Of a DNA stretch of 64,000 nt, positions 1 to 42,673 are shown piece after piece (within the stretch, counting starts at the first letter, position 1; each line of letters opens with the position of its first letter). The notes under the pieces were generated by a model, which saw nothing but the letters and a program-made list of their open reading frames with translations, ran no database searches and was not told where the DNA came from. The stretch spans positions 64,001 to 128,000 of IMG/VR virus record IMGVR_UViG_3300031555_010858. One strand, 5' to 3'. The DNA comes from a virus (Duplodnaviria; Caudoviricetes). The translations under genes and the position numbers were made by a program.

Positions 1-3000
1 CTTTTATATCTTCTATAACACCTGAATATTTAGATTTTATTTTTTCTTTACCACTCATTATAATTTCTTCCTTGAATTCATCACCAACATTAAATAATAA
101 TTGGTTGATTACATCTTCACTGAATGACTTCTCAAATCTTATTAGTTCGTCTCCATTTTGAACCTTATCACCTATTTTAACCATATAGTCAACAGTTGTG
201 TTAGGTCCAAGTACCGCTTGTTTTTGCATAACTACTTCAGTAGCCATTTCTCTAGAAAGTTTTTTACTTATATAAGAACTATCTTCATAAGTTAATGAAG
301 AAGATAATAATGCAACTTTTTGTAATGAACCAACATTAAATCTATTACCAAACGCTGAGTTCTCACTAAAGAATTTATCTTCATATGCTAATATATCATT
401 CTTTTTAAATTTATCACCTTTCTTAACATTGACAGCCATATGTTTAGATATATTAAATCCACCAGCACCATTCTTAGCTATACGGTTTATATCTATAGCA
501 TCATGTTCCCCATTTTTATATTCAACTATTAATAAACCTAATTTTTCATCATATTCTTTTACTTCACCATTGTCTTTAGCAACAAATACCCAGTCTTTAG
601 TACAATGATAAGGCATAACTCTTTCTGCACCATTTGATACTAAAACTGGAGAAGATTTAGCAACAGCAACACAGTGAGTTGATTGTCTACATGACATTGT
701 AGTTCTAACACTGTCATCCCCAGATGCACAACCTGGAGTTAATAGCTCAGCAACACCGAATAAGTTTGCGTCATTATATTCTGTAACTTTACCTTGTAAA
801 GCTTTATTGTCTATAAATCCACGAGGATCTGTTATAGGTGGTTCTAATGTAAGGAATCTATTAACACCAACGTTAGCATCAGGAGAAGAAGATAATGTGA
901 ATACACCAGCCATACCAGGATGGTAAGATCTTTGTTCTTCTGTATAAGCTTGTGCTAAGTTACATCCACTAGGACCTTTTCTTAAGCATTTTCTTAAGTT
1001 TTGTTGTTCATATATAGGATTAAGTTCCGAATAATCTTCTACTGTTTGTTGTTTCATTATATCTTTGATTATAGCTCCACGTTCTATACTTATCTTAGTA
1101 GGGTTATTAAAGTTTGCAGTTTCTTTATATTTTTCATAAGCACTTGCAACGTTTTTATAAACTATAGCATTTACAACTTCAGCACATCTTATTCTAGATA
1201 CAGTTATTTCATGTGTATATTGATTATCTGCTAATAACTCATTTCCATATAATACCATACCAGTTAAATCTGTTGGTAAATTTAATCTCTTTAACACATC
1301 CAATGTCATTGGATCTATAAAGTTATCTTGGAAGTTATCAAATGCATTTGCTATATTTCTTCTACCAAACATAGTTTCAAACATTGATTGATAAACAAAC
1401 TTATCATTTAAATCACTGTAATTATAATTTTTAGTTGGTATATCTATAAACCCATTCATTAATAATGATGTTGCTATAGGTTTATTTGTATATATTAAAT
1501 AACCATCTTGGAATTGTATACAGTTTTCATCAGGTGCTAATCTTGGTCTAGTATCTGAGAAATAGTGTTTTATGTCCGCTCTTTTTAAGAATCCATCTAT
1601 ACCTTCAAAGTAACATAATAATAAAACTATTGGTACTTGTTTACTCATTATAGTTGCTCTACTGTACATATATTTTTTACCAGCAGATTGTTCTCCAACT
1701 TTAGCACTTAATGCTGGAGATAATGATAATATGAATTCAACTAATGTTTTTCCTGTTGATTGAGTTTTACCTTGAGCGTTTATAATAACAACATTGTCAG
1801 ATTTTAAATCTATACAATAATATTCATTACCTTTAATTCCTAAAGGAAGTAATTCAACATCTAATCTTCCTTCTAAACCTTTTATGTTTCTATCTAATAA
1901 TATATGTCTTATTTCCTTTTGGTCGAATATTATTCTAGTACCGTTTATATTAACTTCTTTAAATAATTTAGATAAATCGTCATAATCTATAGTTGTAACA
2001 AAACCTTCATTCTCAGAGTCGAATTTACCACGTTGAACTCTAATACCTTTTATTTCTTCTGATAAAGCTTTTTTAAGTTTTTCATTAGTTTGAGAAACTT
2101 TTTCTCCGTAACGTCTTATGAATATCTTGTTATAATTACTAACTAATTGAACTGTATCAGGATCAACTTTAACTATCGGTAAAAGTAGTTGTTGATTATT
2201 TATATATTTTCTATTACCTCCTAAATATAGATATCTACCTTCTATTATTTTAGGAACGTCAAATACTACTTTATGTCTAACCCTTAATTCGTCTTCAAGT
2301 TCAATAGTCCACGTTTCTTTATAGTTTGATATATCAGAAGTATCTTCTACAGATATATTTCTTACAAATACTTTTATAGATTTATTATTCATATCAGTAA
2401 ACATTGAAACCATGTCTTTTTCCATAAGTTGTTCAACGTATGCTTTATCTATATTTGGGTATCTTATATCAGTAACATTTTTATTTATAGTATCCACGTG
2501 ACTTGATACATCATTAACTGGAACTTCTACTTCTTCTGATTTCATATTTAATATTTCTTCAAGAGTCTTTCCTCTTACAGCGATTTCTAACTGTTTTTCT
2601 CTAAGTAATTCATCACGTTTGTTTGATGCAGCAGTTTTAGCTATATTTTTATTATTAGCCATAACTATTTCTTTCATAAGTTTTTCGTCTTTTTCTATTT
2701 CTTTCTTAACATCATTTTCATCCATTTCTTGGTTTTTATCTAAAACTTTTTCAACTTCAGCTTCTATTTTATTTTTAACATCTTCAGGAACACCTGCATC
2801 ACCAGTAGCACCAAAAACATATTTATCTATTAAGGATTTACTTATATCAGCTTTATTTTGTGCTAATATAGAATCTATTTCAGCAGATACACTTCCTTCT
2901 TCAGGATCTTCTCTATTCAGCATTTTAAATAATTCTTTTCTGTATAATGCTGCAATATTAGCTTTATTTGCATCAGTATTCATAGTTCTCTTACACTCAG

Positions 3001-3661
3001 CAGGGTTAACTCTTAATGTCCAACCTGTTTTAGAAGTTATTAAAAAATCTATATCACCTAATTTAAAAAATTCTTCGGGTTCTCTTTTCATTAAGATATA
3101 TAAATAAGTCATAGGGTTTACAGCTTCTCCCCTATTGTTTAAATCATTAACTAAATCATTACTAAACTCTTCAACGTTCATTATCATTGATTTCATAGGA
3201 TATTTATCTAATGGTAATTCACCTATATATCGCATGATAAATTCCCAATACTCTTTAGGTTTAACTATTCTTGTTATCATAGATGAGTTAGTACTAAATG
3301 CTGTATTTGCATACGAAAGTTCAAAGAATACGTTAAATCCCATATTAAGTTTACCTTCATTTATACCATTTAAATAAGGTAATTCTGCACGTATTTGATC
3401 ATAGTAAGCTTGACGTCCTTGTAATCTATTTTCTCTAACTAACTTACTTCTTATCTTGATTTGTTCTAATCTTTTAGCATAACACATAGTAACCACGTTA
3501 TTATATTCTAGATTAATAGTACCTAATTTAAGTTTTAAGTTTTTAGTATCCATTGTATTCATTATAACTAATGAACCATATCTTTTATTCTTTTGGTCAT
3601 ATTGTATAACAGGTCTTAATCTAGTTCTTTTTAATAATGGTAATTTATTACTAGTAATCAT
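1..3661 (-). CDS. Multisubunit RNA polymerase beta-like subunit, N-terminal/middle piece, probably virion RNAP; truncated at window edge and absent from ORF track
   Basis: Manual translation from ATG at 3661 (MITSNKLPLLKR..., RBS GAAAGGGTGA) stays open to base 1. Beta motifs: YLGGNRK, SSSPDANVG (cf. TPEGxNIG), DDSVRTTMSCRQ (cf. DDANRALMGANMQRQ), TYEDS (cf. NFEDS). Preceded by a late-type promoter. Confidence 0.85.
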   Translation of the reverse strand, partial: MITSNKLPLLKRTRLRPVIQYDQKNKRYGSLVIMNTMDTKNLKLKLGTINLEYNNVVTMCYAKRLEQIKIRSKLVRENRLQGRQAYYDQIRAELPYLNGINEGKLNMGFNVFFELSYANTAFSTNSSMITRIVKPKEYWEFIMRYIGELPLDKYPMKSMIMNVEEFSNDLVNDLNNRGEAVNPMTYLYILMKREPEEFFKLGDIDFLITSKTGWTLRVNPAECKRTMNTDANKANIAALYRKELFKMLNREDPEEGSVSAEIDSILAQNKADISKSLIDKYVFGATGDAGVPEDVKNKIEAEVEKVLDKNQEMDENDVKKEIEKDEKLMKEIVMANNKNIAKTAASNKRDELLREKQLEIAVRGKTLEEILNMKSEEVEVPVNDVSSHVDTINKNVTDIRYPNIDKAYVEQLMEKDMVSMFTDMNNKSIKVFVRNISVEDTSDISNYKETWTIELEDELRVRHKVVFDVPKIIEGRYLYLGGNRKYINNQQLLLPIVKVDPDTVQLVSNYNKIFIRRYGEKVSQTNEKLKKALSEEIKGIRVQRGKFDSENEGFVTTIDYDDLSKLFKEVNINGTRIIFDQKEIRHILLDRNIKGLEGRLDVELLPLGIKGNEYYCIDLKSDNVVIINAQGKTQSTGKTLVEFILSLSPALSAKVGEQSAGKKYMYSRATIMSKQVPIVLLLCYFEGIDGFLKRADIKHYFSDTRPRLAPDENCIQFQDGYLIYTNKPIATSLLMNGFIDIPTKNYNYSDLNDKFVYQSMFETMFGRRNIANAFDNFQDNFIDPMTLDVLKRLNLPTDLTGMVLYGNELLADNQYTHEITVSRIRCAEVVNAIVYKNVASAYEKYKETANFNNPTKISIERGAIIKDIMKQQTVEDYSELNPIYEQQNLRKCLRKGPSGCNLAQAYTEEQRSYHPGMAGVFTLSSSPDANVGVNRFLTLEPPITDPRGFIDNKALQGKVTEYNDANLFGVAELLTPGCASGDDSVRTTMSCRQSTHCVAVAKSSPVLVSNGAERVMPYHCTKDWVFVAKDNGEVKEYDEKLGLLIVEYKNGEHDAIDINRIAKNGAGGFNISKHMAVNVKKGDKFKKNDILAYEDKFFSENSAFGNRFNVGSLQKVALLSSSLTYEDSSYISKKLSREMATEVVMQKQAVLGPNTTVDYMVKIGDKVQNGDELIRFEKSFSEDVINQLLFNVGDEFKEEIIMSGKEKIKSKYSGVIEDIK

Positions 3662-3698
3662 TAAATCTCACCCTTTCGTTATTTACTCTTTATTCACT

Positions 3699-3710
3699 TA
3701 CAAAATTGTT
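3699..3710 (-). promoter_or_regulatory. Putative late promoter AACA-N6-TA for the beta-like gene
   Basis: Minus strand reads AACA-ATTTTG-TA, the same as the site at 13010-13021; matches the AR9 late consensus. Confidence 0.65.
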
Positions 3711-3733
3711 TTTGCCTTGAAAAATCGACGGTT

Positions 3734-3844
3734 AAAACCCCTATGCCAATCATAGGCATAGGGTATATGTCAAAACAATAACAATAAGAGGTAAGATGTT
3801 TATGTTTCAAGTAATATGATGATTCCGATACCATCATTTTACTT
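3734..3844 (-). ncRNA. Candidate ~110-nt small RNA with an anti-RBS segment
   Basis: Late-type promoter at 3844-3855(-). 5' hairpin ATGATGGT/ATCATCAT has a G:U pair only on the minus strand. GC-rich terminator CCCTATGCC/GGCATAGGG plus U-tract at 3734-3763. No RBS-led ORF on this strand. Confidence 0.55.
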
Positions 3845-4017
3845 ACTAATTTGTTATACTAAATTAAATTTTATAAAAACCTTATTATAATTTATCAACA
3901 TACCAACAACTTCTTAATGCGATAGCAGCATTAAGAATAAAACGAACCTCCTTAAGAGGTGAGTGAAGAAGTTGTTAAAATAAAAATATGGTTGGGAAGT
4001 TACGTTTATTTTTGCTG

Positions 4018-4056
4018 TGTAAAAAGGTTAAATTTCAATTATATATTATAAAAGTG
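4018..4056 (+). promoter_or_regulatory. Putative early promoter TGTAA-N19-TATATTAT-AAAAGTG
   Basis: One of six copies with identical spacing; the core resembles the phiKZ early TATATTAC motif. Confidence 0.75.
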
Positions 4057-4094
4057 AATATTTCATTAATGATTTAAATCATTAATGAAATATT
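4057..4094. repeat. Perfect 38-bp palindrome
   Basis: AATATTTCATTAATGATTT|AAATCATTAATGAAATATT, immediately after the early promoter. Confidence 0.95.
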
Positions 4095-4134
4095 AATTAA
4101 GCAATAACAATAAATATATATTAATAGGAGGTAA

Positions 4135-6195
4135 ATGTCTATGAATAATAATTTTAATTTTGATTTAAATAAATATATTGAATTTGAAAATCAAATTTTA
4201 AATGAAGTAGAAGAAATTTATGGTGGAGATAAAATATTCGATTTAAACAAAATCATATCCGATTATGATGAGTTTAAAACAATGTACGGACATATATATT
4301 ATATATTAGAAGAAGGATTTGAGATAGAAGCTATAAGAAAATTTCCAGTAAAAGTAACATTTGATAAAAACAATGAACATTATGTTGAAATGGAAATTAG
4401 ACATTTATTAATAAATATGATATTCTTAAGAGCATTTGTAGAATTAGAAGTTGAAGTAGAATTAGATATAACATATTTATTTGATGCTAGAAAGATTTCT
4501 AATAAGTATATCAAACAGTATATAGATGAAAAAATAATAATTCCATTTAAAGATCAATTTACAGAAACTGAAGAAGGTTTTATGGAATTGAATATAGTAT
4601 TACATGATATAATCTACAGATTAAACAAGATACCAAAAGATTTTAATAGTCTTATGGGAATAACAATAAATCTTGAGAATAGTTTTATAAAAGTTGCAAA
4701 AGAAAATAAAAGATTTAATGAATTAATAAGAACTAAGATACCAGAAGATATGCAACCAAAAGATATAGAAAATCATCTTAATAAATTAATGAAAGAAGAA
4801 GTTGAGATATTAAAAGAAACTCCAAACTGTTTCCAACCAATGTTAATAGCAGGTGGAGCAATTAAAGAAGAACAACTTAGAGAGTTCTCAATTAACGGAG
4901 GATTAAAATCAGACCTATTAGGTAACACAATTCCAATACCTATCAATAGTAACTTAATAGTTGGAGGTTTTAGTAACATAACAAACTATTTTATAGATGC
5001 TGGAGCTTCAAGAAAATCATTAATAGCTAATAAAGAGAAAATGGGTAGTTCAGGACATATGGCGTTATTAATGAAATTATCTTGTGTTGGAACTTATATC
5101 AGTGAAACAGAAGATTGTCATACACCACATACAGTTAAATTAACAATTAATGATAGTAAATTCTTAGAAATGTGTGTTGGAAGATATTATAGATTACCAG
5201 GTATGAGAGAGTTTAAATTATTAAAGAAATCTGATACACATTTAATAGGAAGAACTATATTAGTTAGAGACCCAGGTAAATGTGGATGTAAAGATGGAGT
5301 ATGTAAAACATGTTATGGAGCTTTATCTAAAGTTAATAAAGGAATGGATGTTGGTATATTTGCAGCAACGATTATATCAAGACCATTATCACAAAATATA
5401 TTATCAACAAAACATCTTAACACAACTAATAGTTGTCTTATAGAGTTTAATGATGCATTTGATAAATCATTTAAACTTGAAGCAAACCAAGTTAAAATGT
5501 TAAGTGATAATGAAACTGATGTTGATTTAAGTCAATATGAAATGGTATTTGATAATATAATACAAATTGATGAATTATTAGACAATGCAGATTTTAATAA
5601 ATTTGTACAATTTGTTAAAGTGAGAAACATTAAGAATCATGATGAATATTATGAGATAGTTGAAAACGATGGAAAAGAATTATTTATACATCCAGATTTA
5701 GATGCTATAATTAAGAAAACAGAATCTGATGAAGATGGAGTTATATTAATACCGTTTAGCAGATTATCTGAAGAAACATTATTCACAATAAACATAGAGA
5801 ACAACGAATTAACTAAACCATTAAAAGAAATGGATAAACTTCTAAGTGGATCTTATTTCAAAGGAATGAATCCAACATTAGATATGATGGAACAAAGATT
5901 TATAGAATTATTAATAGAATCTAAAATCAGTGTATTATCAATACATGCAGCAACAATATTAAGATCATTTGTTAGAGATGCTAATAATTATTTAGAAAGA
6001 CCTAATTTCAATAAATTATTTGTAGATTATGTTGTATTAGGTATGCACGCATCATTAGCAGATAATCCATCTATAACAAATAGTTTAGCATACGATTATC
6101 TAAAATCTCAACTATATACACATACAACATTTAAGAAGCATAAACATTCACCATTAGATTTAATGTTTATGAAATCTCTAGCTGATGTAGAATAG
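4135..6195 (+). CDS. RNA polymerase beta'-like subunit, C-terminal piece, probably non-virion RNAP; likely start 4141
   Basis: Bridge-helix region (YFIDAGASRKSL...SSGH), EDCHT, Zn-site C..C...CKTCYG, trigger-loop VGIFAATIISRPLSQNILSTKH (cf. [22 protein letters not shown]). No DxDGD. Early promoter upstream. Confidence 0.85.
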   Translation: MSMNNNFNFDLNKYIEFENQILNEVEEIYGGDKIFDLNKIISDYDEFKTMYGHIYYILEEGFEIEAIRKFPVKVTFDKNNEHYVEMEIRHLLINMIFLRAFVELEVEVELDITYLFDARKISNKYIKQYIDEKIIIPFKDQFTETEEGFMELNIVLHDIIYRLNKIPKDFNSLMGITINLENSFIKVAKENKRFNELIRTKIPEDMQPKDIENHLNKLMKEEVEILKETPNCFQPMLIAGGAIKEEQLREFSINGGLKSDLLGNTIPIPINSNLIVGGFSNITNYFIDAGASRKSLIANKEKMGSSGHMALLMKLSCVGTYISETEDCHTPHTVKLTINDSKFLEMCVGRYYRLPGMREFKLLKKSDTHLIGRTILVRDPGKCGCKDGVCKTCYGALSKVNKGMDVGIFAATIISRPLSQNILSTKHLNTTNSCLIEFNDAFDKSFKLEANQVKMLSDNETDVDLSQYEMVFDNIIQIDELLDNADFNKFVQFVKVRNIKNHDEYYEIVENDGKELFIHPDLDAIIKKTESDEDGVILIPFSRLSEETLFTINIENNELTKPLKEMDKLLSGSYFKGMNPTLDMMEQRFIELLIESKISVLSIHAATILRSFVRDANNYLERPNFNKLFVDYVVLGMHASLADNPSITNSLAYDYLKSQLYTHTTFKKHKHSPLDLMFMKSLADVE

Positions 6196-8990: not shown

Positions 8991-9031
8991 ATCTACAATT
9001 ATGTAATTAAATTTTTAGGAGGTAAGATAAT

Positions 9032-11155
9032 ATGGAAGAAGCTAAGAAATCATTTATTAGCATAATTAATAGTTTTTTATATAAACCTTTAACACGAAAA
9101 GAATTTGTAGCTCAATTAAAGATTGAAAATGTTGAAGAGTTTTATAAAATGTTAGATGAACTTGAAAAAGACATGTATTTTATAGAAACTAAAAAAGGGA
9201 GAATAATCCCTCCATCTCAAGTTGGTCTTTTTGTAGGTAAGTTTATATCTCATAGAAAGGGATTTGGTTTTATAGAATCTGATAATGAAAATGAGCGTGA
9301 TTTATATATACAATCTAAAGATGTTAATGGAGCAGTTCATGGCGATAGAGTAGTTGCAGAAATAACTAAAGAAGCTTCAGGGTATAAAAGAGCAGAAGGT
9401 AAAGTTGTTCAGATAATAAAAAGAAATGTTACACAAATAGTTGGGGTATTTAAACCTCATGAACATTTCGCTTTCGTAGTTCCTAAAAGAACTGAATTTA
9501 AATCAGATATTTATATACAAGAGAAATATTTTAATGGTGCCGAAGAAGACGATATGGTATTAGTAGAAATAACTAAATGGGAAGTTGATAACAAAAAACC
9601 TGAAGGTAAAATAATAGAAGTATTAGGAAATAAAAACAATAGAGGAATTGAAATAGAATCTATTATAAGAGAACATGGATTACCTTTAGAGTTTGAACAA
9701 AAAGTATTAGATAATGCAAATCATGTAGCAGTTCCTATACCTGAAGAAGAATATGAAAGAAGAAGAGATTTAAGAGATAAACATATATTTACAATGGATG
9801 GAGCTGACGCAAAAGATTTAGACGATGCTATACAAGTAGAAATGTTAGATAACGGTAACTATTTATTAGGAGTTCATATAGCAGATGTTACACATTATGT
9901 TAAAGAAAAGTCTAACTTAGATAAAGAGGCTTTAAAAAGAGCAACATCTGTTTATCTTGTAGATAAAGTAATCCCTATGTTACCTAAACAATTATCAAAT
10001 GGTGTTTGTAGTTTAAATCCTGATGAGGATAAATTAACTTTATCTGTATTTATGGAAATAACTGGGAAAGGAGAAGTTGTTAATTCTAGTATAGAAGAAA
10101 CTGTAATCAAATCTAAAGCTAGAATGGTTTATACAGACGTTTCAGATATATTAGAAAATAACGATAGAGAATTAAAGATTAAATATGCTGATTTAGTAGA
10201 TGATTTTAGATTAGCAGAAAAACTTGCTAGAATTCTTATGAAGAAAAGAGAGAAGAGAGGTGCTCTGGATTTTAACTTCCCAGAACCTTATATACATTTA
10301 GATGAAAATGGGATACCTTATGATATAGAACCTTATGAAAGAAGAATTGCTAATAAAATAATAGAAGAGTTCATGCTTGTAACTAACGAAACAGTTGCTG
10401 AATATTTTTATTGGTTAGGCATGCCTTTTGTTTATAGAATACATGAAACACCTAGTTCAAGTAAAGTTGAAGCTTTAAATAAATTTATACACAACTATAA
10501 TTTATTGATAAAAGGTGATACGGAAGAAGTTCATCCAAAAGCAATCCAAAAAATATTAAAATCTATAGAAGGGAAGAAAGAAGAAAGGGCTATAAGTTCT
10601 TTAGTATTAAGATCTTTAAAACAAGCTAAATATTCTCCTGATTGTAGTGGTCATTTTGGATTAGCTGCTAAGTTTTATTGTCATTTTACATCACCTATAA
10701 GAAGATATCCAGATTTACAAATCCATAGAATAATAAAAGAATTTATTAATGGTGGTATAAGTAAAGGAAGACAAAATAAATTAGATGCTATAGTTTTAAA
10801 AGCTTCAGAACAATCTTCTGAGATGGAAAGAAAAGCAGAAGTCGCTGAAAGAGATATTGATAAATATTACAAATGTTTATATATGGAAAATAAAATTGGT
10901 CAAGAATTTAAAGGATTTATCTCAAGTGTAACACATTACGGATTTTATGTAGAACTTCCAGATACAGTAGAAGGATTAGTTCCTATAGAAACATTAAAAG
11001 ATGACTATTATGAATATAATGAAAATACACATGAATTAATAGGTCAAGGACATAGTGATGAAATGCACATAATAGCGTTCAGAGTTGGGGATGAGGTAAC
11101 AGTTAAACTAACAAATGTTAATGTTGAAGCAAGAGAAATTACATTCGAATTATAA
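9032..11155 (+). CDS. rnr: Ribonuclease R (RNB family 3'-5' exoribonuclease)
   Basis: N-terminal HTH, cold-shock domains (KGFGFI, AVHGDRV), catalytic DGADAKDLDDAI, HFTSPIRRYPDL, C-terminal S1 domain. Confidence 0.95.
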   Translation: MEEAKKSFISIINSFLYKPLTRKEFVAQLKIENVEEFYKMLDELEKDMYFIETKKGRIIPPSQVGLFVGKFISHRKGFGFIESDNENERDLYIQSKDVNGAVHGDRVVAEITKEASGYKRAEGKVVQIIKRNVTQIVGVFKPHEHFAFVVPKRTEFKSDIYIQEKYFNGAEEDDMVLVEITKWEVDNKKPEGKIIEVLGNKNNRGIEIESIIREHGLPLEFEQKVLDNANHVAVPIPEEEYERRRDLRDKHIFTMDGADAKDLDDAIQVEMLDNGNYLLGVHIADVTHYVKEKSNLDKEALKRATSVYLVDKVIPMLPKQLSNGVCSLNPDEDKLTLSVFMEITGKGEVVNSSIEETVIKSKARMVYTDVSDILENNDRELKIKYADLVDDFRLAEKLARILMKKREKRGALDFNFPEPYIHLDENGIPYDIEPYERRIANKIIEEFMLVTNETVAEYFYWLGMPFVYRIHETPSSSKVEALNKFIHNYNLLIKGDTEEVHPKAIQKILKSIEGKKEERAISSLVLRSLKQAKYSPDCSGHFGLAAKFYCHFTSPIRRYPDLQIHRIIKEFINGGISKGRQNKLDAIVLKASEQSSEMERKAEVAERDIDKYYKCLYMENKIGQEFKGFISSVTHYGFYVELPDTVEGLVPIETLKDDYYEYNENTHELIGQGHSDEMHIIAFRVGDEVTVKLTNVNVEAREITFEL

Positions 11156-26290: not shown

Positions 26291-26323
26291 ATTAATAAAA
26301 TAAAAATAAATAGGAGGTAACTT

Positions 26324-28240
26324 ATGGCTAAGAAAATTGATGAAAGTAAATCAGTAAATTATATTGTAGAAAGAGTAAGAACACCAATGAGTAGAGAAAA
26401 GTTAAATGAGATATATAATGAATTCAAATCTGATGATGATTATCTTAACTATCATATGGATATAATAGAAGATACACATCCGAAGTTTAAAGTAACAATA
26501 ATAAACGATGAGAGAAAATGTCCAATAAAGAATTCAGAAGAAGATAATTCATATGGATTTATGGAAACAGATGTAGCAATGGATTTTATAGAAGAATGTA
26601 TCAATAGTAATAGAGTTAGTAGTAAACCTAAAGCTGTTATGCAAAACGGTTTTAGTAAGAAAGCAGTTGATAGATATAATGAAATAGTTTCTAAAGAGGA
26701 AGAAGAATCTGAGGCGATAGCACAGTTCACGAAACCAACATTTGATGAAGTAATGAATAATATATATGTTAATACGTATAATGGTTCAACATATAAAATG
26801 AATGAAGCTGATATTCCAGATGATCTTAGAGAAGATGTTGGTGTAATAATTCCAGGATTAATAGAAACTAAAGAAGAATATTTTGAGTTTGTTAAAAGAT
26901 TAAAAGATAAAGGTAAAGGAGGTTTAGGGAGATCTATATATGAACGTTATGAAGATTATGAAGAAGCAAAGGATTTAATAGAAACTTATAAACAAGCATT
27001 ATTCGATAAGTATGGAAGTAAAGAAGATTATTTCTATGCAAAAGAATTGGGTGGTATATTTGGAGCTTATGAATATTATCCAACAGTTAAACCTAGATTC
27101 AAGAAAAATGCTAGAAATATAAAATTAGATAAAGGTATAAATCTAAATGCATTAGCATTGGTTAAAGATATGGGTAAACGTATAAGAGAAGAATTTGAAG
27201 ATGAAATAGAAGAAATAGAAGTAGATGGATTAGATTATAAAATATATGATAACACACCACCTAAGTTTAAAGACCTACCTGAAGATCTTAAAATGTTATA
27301 TAAAACAGATCAATATAACATTAATGGATTTACACAAATCAACAATTTCAAATCTATAAAAGCTTACGCAGAAGAATTAATCAGATCAGGAGACCCAGAT
27401 AAACAACTTGAAGGTTATTTAATACAAGAAAGTTTAGATAGTGATAAGATGTTATCAACACAACATTATTATGAATCAGATTTCTATAATGTAAGTGATC
27501 TTGATGATTTATCATTAAATGCAGTAGTAGGACAACTTGAATATGATAAATTGATGTATGAAAATGATTACGATAGAACAATAGCAGAAGCAAAATTAAT
27601 TAATAATGAATATACAAAAGAAGGTTATAAAAAGTTCTTAGAAGAACAATTGATCGCAATAAACGGATATGATTTAAGTAATACCGTGGATAAAACAAAA
27701 GTTACAGAATTAACTAAATATGCAGTAGAATATACATTCAGTAAAGAATATCAAGAAGATCAAAAACGTAAATCTAATATGAGTCAAGTTGCAAGTTCAG
27801 TATATGAAACAAAAGGTTCAGCAACATTTGGAGAATCAGTTAAAGCAGAAGTTAGAAGTGGTGAAAGTAACGTTTCAGCTTATGTTAGAAAATTAGGACA
27901 AAGAGCTAAAGGTAAATTAACAGAGTTGACAAAAGACGCAGATAATGTTAATAAATCAACAATGACAAGAGATGAAGCAACTGGATATAATGAAATAGAT
28001 ACAAGAGTGCATGGATTCTATTTAGAACCAAAACCATCACAATTATTAAACTATATGAAAAATAATGATGAGTTAGCTAATAAAGTATACGAATTAACAT
28101 CTGAGAAAGACGGTAATAATATGTTTAGTGAAAGAACTAATATAGATGATTTCGTAGATGCAGCATTAGATGAAAGTAAACCAATGTTTGATGCAACATT
28201 ATTAGAAAAATCAATGAAAAATGAAAGAAAGGATGTGTAA
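26324..28240 (+). CDS. Large acidic early protein of unknown function
   Basis: 638-aa ORF, RBS AGGAGG, no recognisable motif. Confidence 0.8.
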   Translation: MAKKIDESKSVNYIVERVRTPMSREKLNEIYNEFKSDDDYLNYHMDIIEDTHPKFKVTIINDERKCPIKNSEEDNSYGFMETDVAMDFIEECINSNRVSSKPKAVMQNGFSKKAVDRYNEIVSKEEEESEAIAQFTKPTFDEVMNNIYVNTYNGSTYKMNEADIPDDLREDVGVIIPGLIETKEEYFEFVKRLKDKGKGGLGRSIYERYEDYEEAKDLIETYKQALFDKYGSKEDYFYAKELGGIFGAYEYYPTVKPRFKKNARNIKLDKGINLNALALVKDMGKRIREEFEDEIEEIEVDGLDYKIYDNTPPKFKDLPEDLKMLYKTDQYNINGFTQINNFKSIKAYAEELIRSGDPDKQLEGYLIQESLDSDKMLSTQHYYESDFYNVSDLDDLSLNAVVGQLEYDKLMYENDYDRTIAEAKLINNEYTKEGYKKFLEEQLIAINGYDLSNTVDKTKVTELTKYAVEYTFSKEYQEDQKRKSNMSQVASSVYETKGSATFGESVKAEVRSGESNVSAYVRKLGQRAKGKLTELTKDADNVNKSTMTRDEATGYNEIDTRVHGFYLEPKPSQLLNYMKNNDELANKVYELTSEKDGNNMFSERTNIDDFVDAALDESKPMFDATLLEKSMKNERKDV

Positions 28241-41194: not shown

Positions 41195-41212
41195 ATAAAA
41201 AAATAGGAGGTA

Positions 41213-42673
41213 ATGTGTATGATAATAGAAAGAAATAATGGAATTGAAAAGAATGGATTTATGTTACAAATTGCTGATATAGATAAAGAAGCAGAATTAG
41301 ATTTAAAAGCAGGAAAAGCATTCGTTGTATATGAACCGATAAAAGATAAAAAGACAACAGATGGTAGTTATAATAAAGGAGGAATCCGTTCGGATTTCTT
41401 CTATAGTGAAATGTCAAGTGAAAATGCATTCAAAGAAAGATATAGTTGTGAATGTGGCTATCTTGAAGGTAAATCACATGAATCATCTATATGTCCTTAT
41501 TGTAGAACAAATGTTAGATTGGTTGATATAGATTTAGAAAAGTTTGCTTATATTAAAATTAAAGATTATCATATAATTCATCCAGCATTATATTTATATC
41601 TTAATAATATAATGGGTGAAAAGAATAAGCAATCTATATTAGAGAATATTATACAACCACCTAAGTTTATAGATACGGATGCATTCGGTAATCCATTATT
41701 GGATGATGAAGTTGAAATTGATAAAGATCAACCATTTAAGAATATAGGTATGTTAGAATTCCAAAGAAGATTTGATGAAATATTAGATTATTATGCTGAA
41801 AAGAATAAGAGAAATTCAAATATGGAAGGAAATGTTGCATTTGTAAAAGCAAACAAAGATAAATTATTCTTCCAATATATTCCAGTGTTTAGTTCAGCAT
41901 TAAGATTTGCAATGGTACAAAATGAAATTAACTTTGTAAATGGAACTGATAAAATATATAATATGATATTCAGTTCTGTATCTAGAATGAATAATTCAAA
42001 TGATACATTATCAGTAGATAAGAAATTACCTTATATACAAAAGAAAGTAAATGAATTATATGAAAAGATGTTTAGTTTAATCAATAAGAAAGATGGGTTT
42101 ATAAAATCAGGTGTATTAGCAGGAAGAATGAACTATACATCAAGAAACGTTATAATATCAAATCCAAACTTAGCAGCAGATGAAATTATATTATCTTATA
42201 TATCATTCTTAGAAATGTATAAGTTTGAGATAATACAAAAATTAGCAACAACACAAAACATTACAGAAAGTCAAGCATACAGTGAATGGTATATGGGTTG
42301 TATCAACTTTAGTGAAAAGATATACAAAATTATAAAATTAATGATATCACAAGATTTAACATATTGCTTAATCAACCGTGCACCAACTATAGATTGGGGT
42401 AGTATATTACAGGTTAAGATAGTTGATGTTACAAAGAAAGTTGATGATTATACAATGGGTATTTCATTAATGATATTAGCAGGTCTTAACGCAGATTTTG
42501 ATGGCGACAACTTAACAATAACTAAGCTATCTGCTAAAGATCAAATTAAAGCTACAAGAAAATATAATCCTAAATTACATTCAATGATATCTCATAATGA
42601 CGGATTATTAAGTGGTAATATGATGCCTATAAAAGATTTAGCTATAGGTTTAAGTCATTTCTGTAGAGTATAA
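41213..42673 (+). CDS. RNA polymerase beta'-like N-terminal piece with the catalytic site, probably non-virion RNAP; likely start 41219
   Basis: Zn finger CECG...CPYC, KKDGFIK..VLAGRMNYTSRNVI, INRAPTI, catalytic NADFDGD. Confidence 0.92.
   Translation: MCMIIERNNGIEKNGFMLQIADIDKEAELDLKAGKAFVVYEPIKDKKTTDGSYNKGGIRSDFFYSEMSSENAFKERYSCECGYLEGKSHESSICPYCRTNVRLVDIDLEKFAYIKIKDYHIIHPALYLYLNNIMGEKNKQSILENIIQPPKFIDTDAFGNPLLDDEVEIDKDQPFKNIGMLEFQRRFDEILDYYAEKNKRNSNMEGNVAFVKANKDKLFFQYIPVFSSALRFAMVQNEINFVNGTDKIYNMIFSSVSRMNNSNDTLSVDKKLPYIQKKVNELYEKMFSLINKKDGFIKSGVLAGRMNYTSRNVIISNPNLAADEIILSYISFLEMYKFEIIQKLATTQNITESQAYSEWYMGCINFSEKIYKIIKLMISQDLTYCLINRAPTIDWGSILQVKIVDVTKKVDDYTMGISLMILAGLNADFDGDNLTITKLSAKDQIKATRKYNPKLHSMISHNDGLLSGNMMPIKDLAIGLSHFCRV

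Follow-up and report, generated by a model that had tools for sequence, protein, structure and literature searches.

In Firmicutes, the trans-acting small RNAs (sRNAs) RsaE/RoxS, FsrA and RNAIII of S. aureus bind Shine-Dalgarno (SD) sites through C-rich seeds. In phage T4, the endoribonuclease RegB inactivates early messages through their GGAG-containing ribosome sites. Regulatory sRNAs of phages are, to our knowledge, known almost exclusively from temperate phages and prophages. In a 2025 review of sRNAs derived from phages, the c4 antisense RNA of phages P1/P7 is mentioned and the terms jumbo, lytic phage, virulent phage, phiKZ and early genes do not occur (PMC12197685). Here we describe a stretch of 64 000 nt (the window), bases 64001-128000 of a 202.6-kb virus contig with 27% G+C (IMG/VR record IMGVR_UViG_3300031555_010858), and within it a minus-strand unit in the 473-bp spacer that separates two divergent RNA polymerase (RNAP) genes. 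These encode the virion RNAP beta subunit (minus strand) and the C-terminal piece of the beta' subunit of the non-virion RNAP (nvRNAP; beta' C, plus strand). The unit is a non-coding, structured and selected element. We propose, as a reading that may well be right though it falls short of probable, that it is a late-promoter sRNA gene whose anti-SD seed would lower the translation of early messages, with nvRNAP subunits as the best candidate targets.

The predicted RNA resembles the Firmicute sRNAs with C-rich seeds in its size (~100 nt), its own promoter and its hairpins, which flank unpaired or loop-exposed C/U-rich anti-GGAGG motifs; several such motifs occur in some lineages, and the predicted targets are many. 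It differs from them in belonging to a lytic-type jumbo phage, with a phage-polymerase late promoter instead of a host sigma-factor promoter, in its seed, which is UUACCUC and not CCCC/UCCC, and in its predicted targets, which are the phage's own early genes. The unit has no sequence or Rfam match, whether to RsaE/RoxS or to any other family: a cmscan search of positions 3300-4500 at E up to 10 returned only sub-threshold hits, of which the best on the unit's strand was snoU83D (17.7 bits, against a cut-off of 55).

With sar of phage P22 and c4 of P1/P7, the unit would share the plan of a small phage RNA that lies beside or within the regulated region and occludes a ribosome site at a set time. 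However, sar is a genuine cis-antisense RNA that matches its target perfectly, and the action of c4 is confined to the operon that encodes it, whereas the unit has no gene opposite to it, its candidate targets are many and 0.3 to 37 kb away, and pairing with its own neighbour is weak. A cis-antisense RNA of the sar type was accordingly rejected, the opposite strand holding only unconserved open reading frames (ORFs) of 3, 7 and 29 codons. The proposed outcome, selective inactivation of early messages that are no longer needed, is that of T4 RegB, but RegB is a protein nuclease, whereas the unit would occlude as an RNA; the two are not homologous and are compared by function only. With the two-polymerase scheme of AR9/PBS1, the phage studied here shares the promoter grammar and homologous RNAP subunit genes at ~28% identity. 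Antisense and internal late promoters have reportedly been seen in AR9 transcript maps, and we know of no comparable sRNA in these maps.

The beta protein has 141 homologues in public assemblies; to assess conservation, the upstream regions were compared for 16 lineages, including 12 further contigs that we fetched. The unit was found in 13 of the 16, down to 39% beta protein identity. It stands before the orthologous beta gene in the relatives G001 (62% N-terminal identity) and G005 (70%), and clade B (G004 and G002; 35-37% identity) has a diverged form of it. UUACCUC, predicted to be unpaired, is identical in all 13 unit-bearing lineages and is the only element invariant in all of them, while the longer core AACAUCUUACCUCU is identical in seven lineages of the window's clade; the core to which an earlier note on this stretch, made from the sequence alone, had drawn attention is thus conserved in relatives. 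A further motif, (A/U)CGGAAA, lies near the 5' end in most unit-bearing lineages (it was not seen in G001), inside the 5' hairpin loop in close relatives and at +4..+10 in distant lineages. Some lineages carry extra C-rich motifs: CACCUCCC, identical to the 16S rRNA tail, sits in the predicted 5' hairpin loop of L067 (~815-850), AUCUCCC is found in that of L068 and L073, and L069 also carries AUCUCCC (loop not shown). Exact occurrences of a core 16-mer in IMG/VR were those in known relatives and chance matches, most of which correspond to genuine gene starts read in reverse complement. The L068-type core, searched for exactly, gave no hit, and the window core with one mismatch was not found in G002-G004, whose units carry a diverged core. 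The conservation of the unit in 13 independent lineages places it far beyond chance.

The 3' hairpin is kept across the unit-bearing lineages as a perfect stem of 9-22 bp (one mismatch in L062) with the loop UAUGAUU or a near variant, and the loop consensus persists down to 44% protein identity. In an alignment of 11 lineages, 97.5% of the cells are paired and 11/11 pairs change on both sides, a count that is possibly slightly inflated, the window's stem being offset by one column. None of 500 shuffles was as good, and slid controls were 26-47% paired. Folding-energy z-scores of four homologues ranged from -3.4 to -4.2 (the clade B homologue was folded from a slightly misplaced start). No ORF is conserved on either strand: those on the plus strand have 7, 29 and 3 codons, those on the minus strand 47 versus 10 (read by eye), and a small protein encoded by the unit was therefore rejected. 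Taken together, the conserved motifs, the covarying hairpin and the unrelated short ORFs demonstrate that the unit is non-coding, structured and under selection. Strain variation in four sequencing runs was uninformative: just one substitution falls within the unit, 3830 A>C at the upper end of the 5' stem.

In phage AR9 the early promoter is AAATATATATTAT-N6-G, and the experimentally defined late promoter is AACA-N6-TA/G, its last base being the start site (PMC5312081). Both grammars are readable in the window genome. The late-type promoter that the earlier note had placed at the upstream end of the unit (P1; Table 1) fits the AR9 late rule, and AACA-N6-TA occupies the same relative place in 13/13 unit-bearing lineages. 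In a genome-wide scan, 75 copies of AACA-N6-TA were found in the intergenic 7% of the genome, most of them 25-50 nt before the start of a gene on the same strand; P1, at 183 nt from the beta ATG, is an outlier. The beta gene has a late promoter of its own (P2), which is kept in 16/16 lineages, including three that lack the unit.

An extended early motif, TGTAAAAAGG-N10-TTCAATTATATATTATAA-N4-TG, has seven copies in the genome, all on the plus strand, one of them at 4018-4058 before beta' C. The N-terminal piece of beta' (beta' N) lies within an early operon, and a gene for a 638-aa protein is the first gene after an early promoter. The beta' genes are thus predicted to be early genes, as the earlier note had it. 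Genes were classed as early or late by the strict extended motif; a looser early-promoter pattern admitted too many sites and yielded no signal. Breaks in metagenome contigs fall at 4018 and 4058, as is usual for a repeat such as the early-promoter motif.

The 5' hairpin and unpaired core described in the earlier note were both recovered when the unit was folded: the 14-bp stem forms at +1..+36, and the core stretch UUACCUCUUAUU is unpaired in the minimum-free-energy (MFE) structure and in the ensemble, with weakly paired flanks. Between the two hairpins, ~45 unpaired or weakly paired bases contain AACAUCUUACCUCU and UUAUUGUUUU; the latter, a U-rich module, forms together with neighbouring bases a second pairing block of 14 bp with positions 4100-4113. 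We also considered the module as a promoter decoy, in which UUAUUGUUUU, as a complement of the late-promoter consensus AAAACAAT, would mimic the nvRNAP template, and dropped the idea because the module is absent from clade B. A 5' hairpin is predicted in the five closest relatives as well; that of G001 (8 bp, from +1) was paired by hand and appears in neither the MFE nor the centroid structure. Among the datasets holding window DNA, no RNA run was listed. Run X20, guessed to be RNA, gave only low-depth Logan contigs (one ends at 3763) with no start, end or strand, and nothing was concluded from it.

We hypothesize that nvRNAP would fire P1 late in infection and produce a small non-coding RNA of ~105-115 nt that ends at or just past the 3' hairpin. 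The 5' stem-loop, which starts at the first base, would stabilize or protect this RNA. UUACCUC, the exact complement of GAGGUAA, would be exposed between the hairpins, with further C-rich loops in some lineages, and would pair with ribosome sites of the GAGGUAA type on early messages, and also with the neighbouring A-rich leader and the bases of the start codon. Such pairing would hinder initiation, and early messages would be translated less after the onset of late transcription. Since the nvRNAP subunits beta' N, beta' C and a protein like AR9 gp226 would be the best conserved candidate targets, negative feedback on the polymerase would follow. What the sequences show is the anatomy and conservation of the unit, the covariation of its hairpin and the statistics of complementarity; production of the RNA, its 3' end, pairing in trans and translational repression are steps that we infer. 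It is plausible that the RNA acts against ribosome sites as a class; that it is a dedicated switch for feedback on the polymerase is a narrower hypothesis, reasonable yet unproven.

The complementarity on which the proposal draws is readily found in the window. The 12-mer AATAGGAGGTAA has exactly three copies, at 4123, 26309 and 41202 (0 expected), CAATAACAATAA lies at 4102-4113 in the beta' C leader and again at 3776-3787 as the core's own complement, and AGGAGGTAAGAT lies at 9017-9028 in the RNase R ribosome site. The complementarities that the earlier note had listed are therefore all present at its coordinates, and its caveat that anti-SD matches are partly generic holds. When both strands of the whole genome were scanned, the beta' C leader gave the top non-self duplex (-28.0 kcal/mol), followed by a dense tail that begins at -25.8 and -25.0. 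This duplex is bipartite (14 + 12 + 4 + 4 bp) and covers the SD and both candidate ATGs. In both beta' genes just 2-3 nt separate AGGAGGTAA from the first ATG, and the alignment with the L001 orthologue begins at the second; because of the SD spacing and this alignment, the start codons are probably the second ATGs, at 4141 and 41219, and not those at 4135 and 41213. The plus strand of the core (3776-3806) resembles the beta' C leader (4102-4143) with 14 bases missing, which suggests that the core arose by duplication of a fragment of its target.

For the ranking of targets, two relatives were assembled in full from IMG/VR, G001 (202.8 kb, incomplete) and G004 (266 kb, complete). Genes were called by a home-made rule of ORF plus SD, and the ribosome sites were ranked against each genome's own core (159, 242 and 280 genes in the window's genome, G000, and in G001 and G004). 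Across 72 reciprocal-best ortholog triplets, the best combined rank fell to beta' N (8, 5 and 3 in G000, G001 and G004), followed by beta' C (1, 21 and 68), a virion protein (31, 1 and 61), a 500-aa early gene (4, 22 and 59) and the 638-aa early gene (32, 15 and 26). The three nvRNAP subunits available among the triplets thus took ranks 1, 2 and 4, the 500-aa gene having been annotated as RNA polymerase only after the ranking. As controls we used pseudo-sRNAs, the antisense of each gene's own ribosome site, and 0/69 of these put even two of the three nvRNAP subunits in the top 4. When the flanks were shuffled and UUACCUCU was kept, the combined score of beta' C was reached by 0/100 sequences and that of beta' N by 5/100; the beta' C result is driven by the window's genome (per-genome fractions 0.02, 0.06 and 0.30). 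In G004, beta' N offers 15 contiguous base pairs (paired by eye), and the sites of five nvRNAP subunits are all in the top quartile (ranks 3, 27, 58, 59 and 68 of 280). GAGGTAA sites precede 34/122 early-operon genes (28%) versus 70/559 others (12.5%; odds ratio 2.7, Fisher p=5e-5), and in each of the three genomes the genes of early operons have lower predicted pairing energies than other genes (p=0.03, 0.007 and 0.005). These results give moderate support to a preference of the predicted RNA for early messages. For the nvRNAP subunits as preferred targets they are suggestive, not conclusive.

Several observations weigh against the proposal. The real best score was reached by 45% of the pseudo-sRNAs with two genomes and by 19% with three, so the magnitude of the target score is ordinary. 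Rank 1 of beta' C holds just in the genome in which the idea arose (21/242 in G001, 68/280 in G004), and outside the window's clade beta' N alone stands out. The beta' N site is itself generically sticky towards antisense controls, and the RNase R site was in the top 3 for 14/109 control antisense sequences. Complementarity to GGAGGUAA is generic because 29/159 genes of the window genome carry this motif, the 12-nt match amounts to a match to the phage's consensus ribosome site, and no site in its own genome pairs as well with the window core as one in another phage does (-32.8 kcal/mol). Orthologous sites do not count as independent observations, and the target statistics also suffer from approximate gene calls and operon classes, both from the home-made caller, from the relatedness of the genomes, from A/U pairing of low complexity and from several choices made post hoc. 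As to conservation, L026, L071 and L072 have P2 and lack the unit, and in the more distant clade G006 (38% identity) P2 alone is present.

The 3' end is a further weak point. Of the terminator that the earlier note had drawn at 3734-3763, the 9-bp hairpin with its GC-containing stem is present, but just four U follow the stem and a consensus terminator scan did not call it. The 3' tails vary among relatives and several are poor U tracts, as is that of the window, so that read-through into the beta gene is possible. Taken together, the earlier note's reading of a late RNA that could block early genes, including those of its own polymerase, is partly supported: the late promoter, the conserved core, the ranks of the nvRNAP subunits and the enrichment of early sites speak for it, and the ordinary target scores and the weak 3' end speak against it.

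Read-through leads to the main rival explanation, a cis-acting leader, which we regard as unlikely. P1 transcripts would run into the virion beta gene, and the core would fold onto the beta ribosome site and silence or regulate this long isoform, while the isoform from P2 would be translatable; in a variant, a short RNA would act on the P2 mRNA of its neighbour, as c4 of phage P1 does in its own operon. The unit always adjoins the virion beta gene, several lineages have hairpin tails that make weak terminators, and in full-leader MFE folds of the window, G001 and L041 the core pairs with the SD and start codon of beta; the tails and the folds also count against a separable RNA gene. On the other hand, the core duplex with the beta site reaches just -19 kcal/mol, ranks 40/159, 174/242 and 225/280 and is no better than with shuffled flanks (fractions 0.19, 0.5 and 0.62), and the SD of beta (GAAAGGGUG, in clade B GAAAGGAG) is not the complement of the invariant UUACC. 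We read the unit as a separable sRNA gene and not merely a 5' untranslated region, a prediction made from sequence, because P2 is kept with or without the unit and the unit is missing from three otherwise close lineages. The same is suggested by L062, where an extra 19-bp hairpin (880-940; loop AUAU, flanked by A and U runs) lies between the unit and P2 and is a strong, canonical-looking terminator-like structure, and by L069, whose 3' hairpin has a U-rich tail. The extra hairpin of L062 resembles a bidirectional terminator. A transcription attenuator or riboswitch leader was rejected since P2, which is conserved and serves the beta gene itself, lies downstream of the hairpin; no conserved alternative terminator/antiterminator pairing was found in the folds of the unit and leaders.

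It is also rather improbable, in our judgement, that the main task of the structured RNA is to bind a protein of phage or host, as a platform or as a decoy, through CGGAAA and the UAUGAUU loop, with UUACCUC forming part of the protein site or imitating the 3' end of 16S rRNA. The UAUGAUU loop is kept while its stem changes completely, which would not normally be expected of a plain terminator loop, and neither it nor the 5' CGGAAA is explained by anti-SD pairing; both may bind a protein. Yet the sole element invariant in 13 lineages is the anti-SD, the extra C-rich loops of some lineages are as expected of SD-binding seeds, and the enrichment of early-operon targets would have to be a coincidence. 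That the unit has no dedicated RNA function we consider very unlikely. It would then be a DNA-level feature of the control region, for example a vestigial plus-strand ribosome site and start derived from a beta' leader together with promoter-associated repeats, with the hairpin insulating divergent transcription. The likeness of plus strand 3776-3806 to a shortened beta' C leader fits such an origin, as does the finding that the 16-mer, where it turns up by chance in other phages, usually reads as the reverse complement of a genuine gene start. However, the plus-strand ORFs are mutually unrelated, P1 is at a fixed distance from the 5' motifs and the block is retained even where the neighbouring protein has fallen to 39% identity; moreover, stem covariation with perfect pairing in 11 lineages points to selection on a folded strand and not on a protein-binding palindrome. 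The sRNA gene with an anti-SD seed therefore remains our preferred reading.

Table 1. Positions in the window of the unit's parts, its predicted targets and neighbouring features
Feature	Positions	Strand	Description
Late promoter P1	3844..3855	minus	AACAAATTAGTA, fits AACA-N6-TA; predicted start A3844
5' stem-loop	3809..3844 (+1..+36)	minus	14 bp, one mismatch; loop AUCGGA with CGGAAA-like motif
Conserved core AACAUCUUACCUCU	3787..3800	minus	includes anti-SD UUACCUC (3788-3794)
U-rich module UUAUUGUUUU	3772..3781	minus	kept within the window's clade
3' hairpin	3739..3763	minus	9-bp stem CCCUAUGCC / loop UAUGAUU / GGCAUAGGG
Tail GUUUUAA	3732..3738	minus	possible RNA 3' end; further U5 run at 3720-3724
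Late promoter P2 of virion RNAP beta gene	3699..3710	minus	AACAATTTTGTA; predicted start 3699, 38 nt before ATG
Virion RNAP beta subunit gene	2..3661	minus	1380 aa, ATG at 3661, extends beyond window start; SD GAAAGGGTGAG at 3667-3677
beta' C leader, SD, start	4099..4144	plus	best predicted trans target in the window genome
RNase R ribosome site	9017..9034	plus	candidate target, generically sticky
638-aa early gene ribosome site	26309..26326	plus	exact AATAGGAGGTAA; candidate target
beta' N ribosome site	41202..41221	plus	best conserved predicted target

The genes on either side of the spacer were assigned by homology. The 1380-aa beta gene matches phrog_3148 'RNA polymerase beta subunit' (E=3e-143), and its homologues in Staphylococcus jumbo phages are annotated as viral (virion) RNAP beta; upstream of the virion beta gene of one of these phages, Madawaska, no comparable unit was found. 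The plus-strand neighbour matches the C-terminal piece of the beta' subunit (phrog_3015), with homologues annotated as non-virion. The RNAP pieces of the contig are ~28% identical to their counterparts in Bacillus phages AR9/PBS1 and in Staphylococcus jumbo phages. The 500-aa early gene lies outside the window (genome 4698-6200; L075 99-1601) and matches phrog_25005 'RNA polymerase', a profile of 464 positions, at E=2e-17; it probably encodes the fifth nvRNAP subunit, which would confer promoter specificity and correspond to AR9 gp226. With the AR9 nvRNAP beta genes g089 and g105 as tblastn queries, no homologue was obtained in G000 or G001, both being present in G004, and Pfam and phmmer searches for nvRNAP beta genes in the window contig found none. 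These genes are probably in the missing part of G000 and G001 because both contigs are 81-82% complete. DNA near-identical to the window was found in animal faecal and bovine gut metagenomes. Among GenBank phages, there was no near DNA match to the locus and no match to the N-terminal 400 aa of the beta protein.

Two further elements adjoin the unit. In most lineages it is next to an element that precedes beta' C in L001-L008 and is present in three copies, at 3862-3990 of the window (plus strand) and at ~22.4 kb (plus) and ~173.3 kb (minus) of the genome. This element contains an AACA-N6-TA match and internal hairpins, and its closing inverted repeat, CAACAACTTCTT...AAGAAGTTGTT, covaries (CTCC/GGAG in L002, CTTAT/ATAAG in L007). 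Pairing of the core with AAGAGGUGAG at 3955-3964, in this neighbouring divergent element, was considered and dropped, as it is not conserved in G001. Phages of the G001 type (L011 2640-2800, also L066) carry a second, tandem unit upstream of P1, which consists of a late motif AACAATTTAATA, the hairpin AUCUAC-AUCCAUC-GUAGAU, a distinct C-rich stretch GUACCCCUUUU and a hairpin with a UAUGAUU loop. It may be a paralogous sRNA with a different seed.

Our findings define a candidate RNA family, known from 13 lineages and marked by three conserved motifs and a hairpin that covaries, which sits at the junction between the genes of two polymerases and whose sole invariant element is an anti-ribosome-site sequence. 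The boldest reading is more doubtful: we think it somewhat unlikely, though worth stating, that in a family of gut jumbo phages with two polymerases a late anti-SD sRNA acts as a temporal switch on early messages, above all on those of the nvRNAP subunits, combining feedback on nvRNAP with a shut-off of early translation, as an RNA counterpart of T4 RegB. If true, the unit would provide a concrete mechanism for the early-to-late switch and for polymerase homeostasis in two-polymerase jumbo phages.

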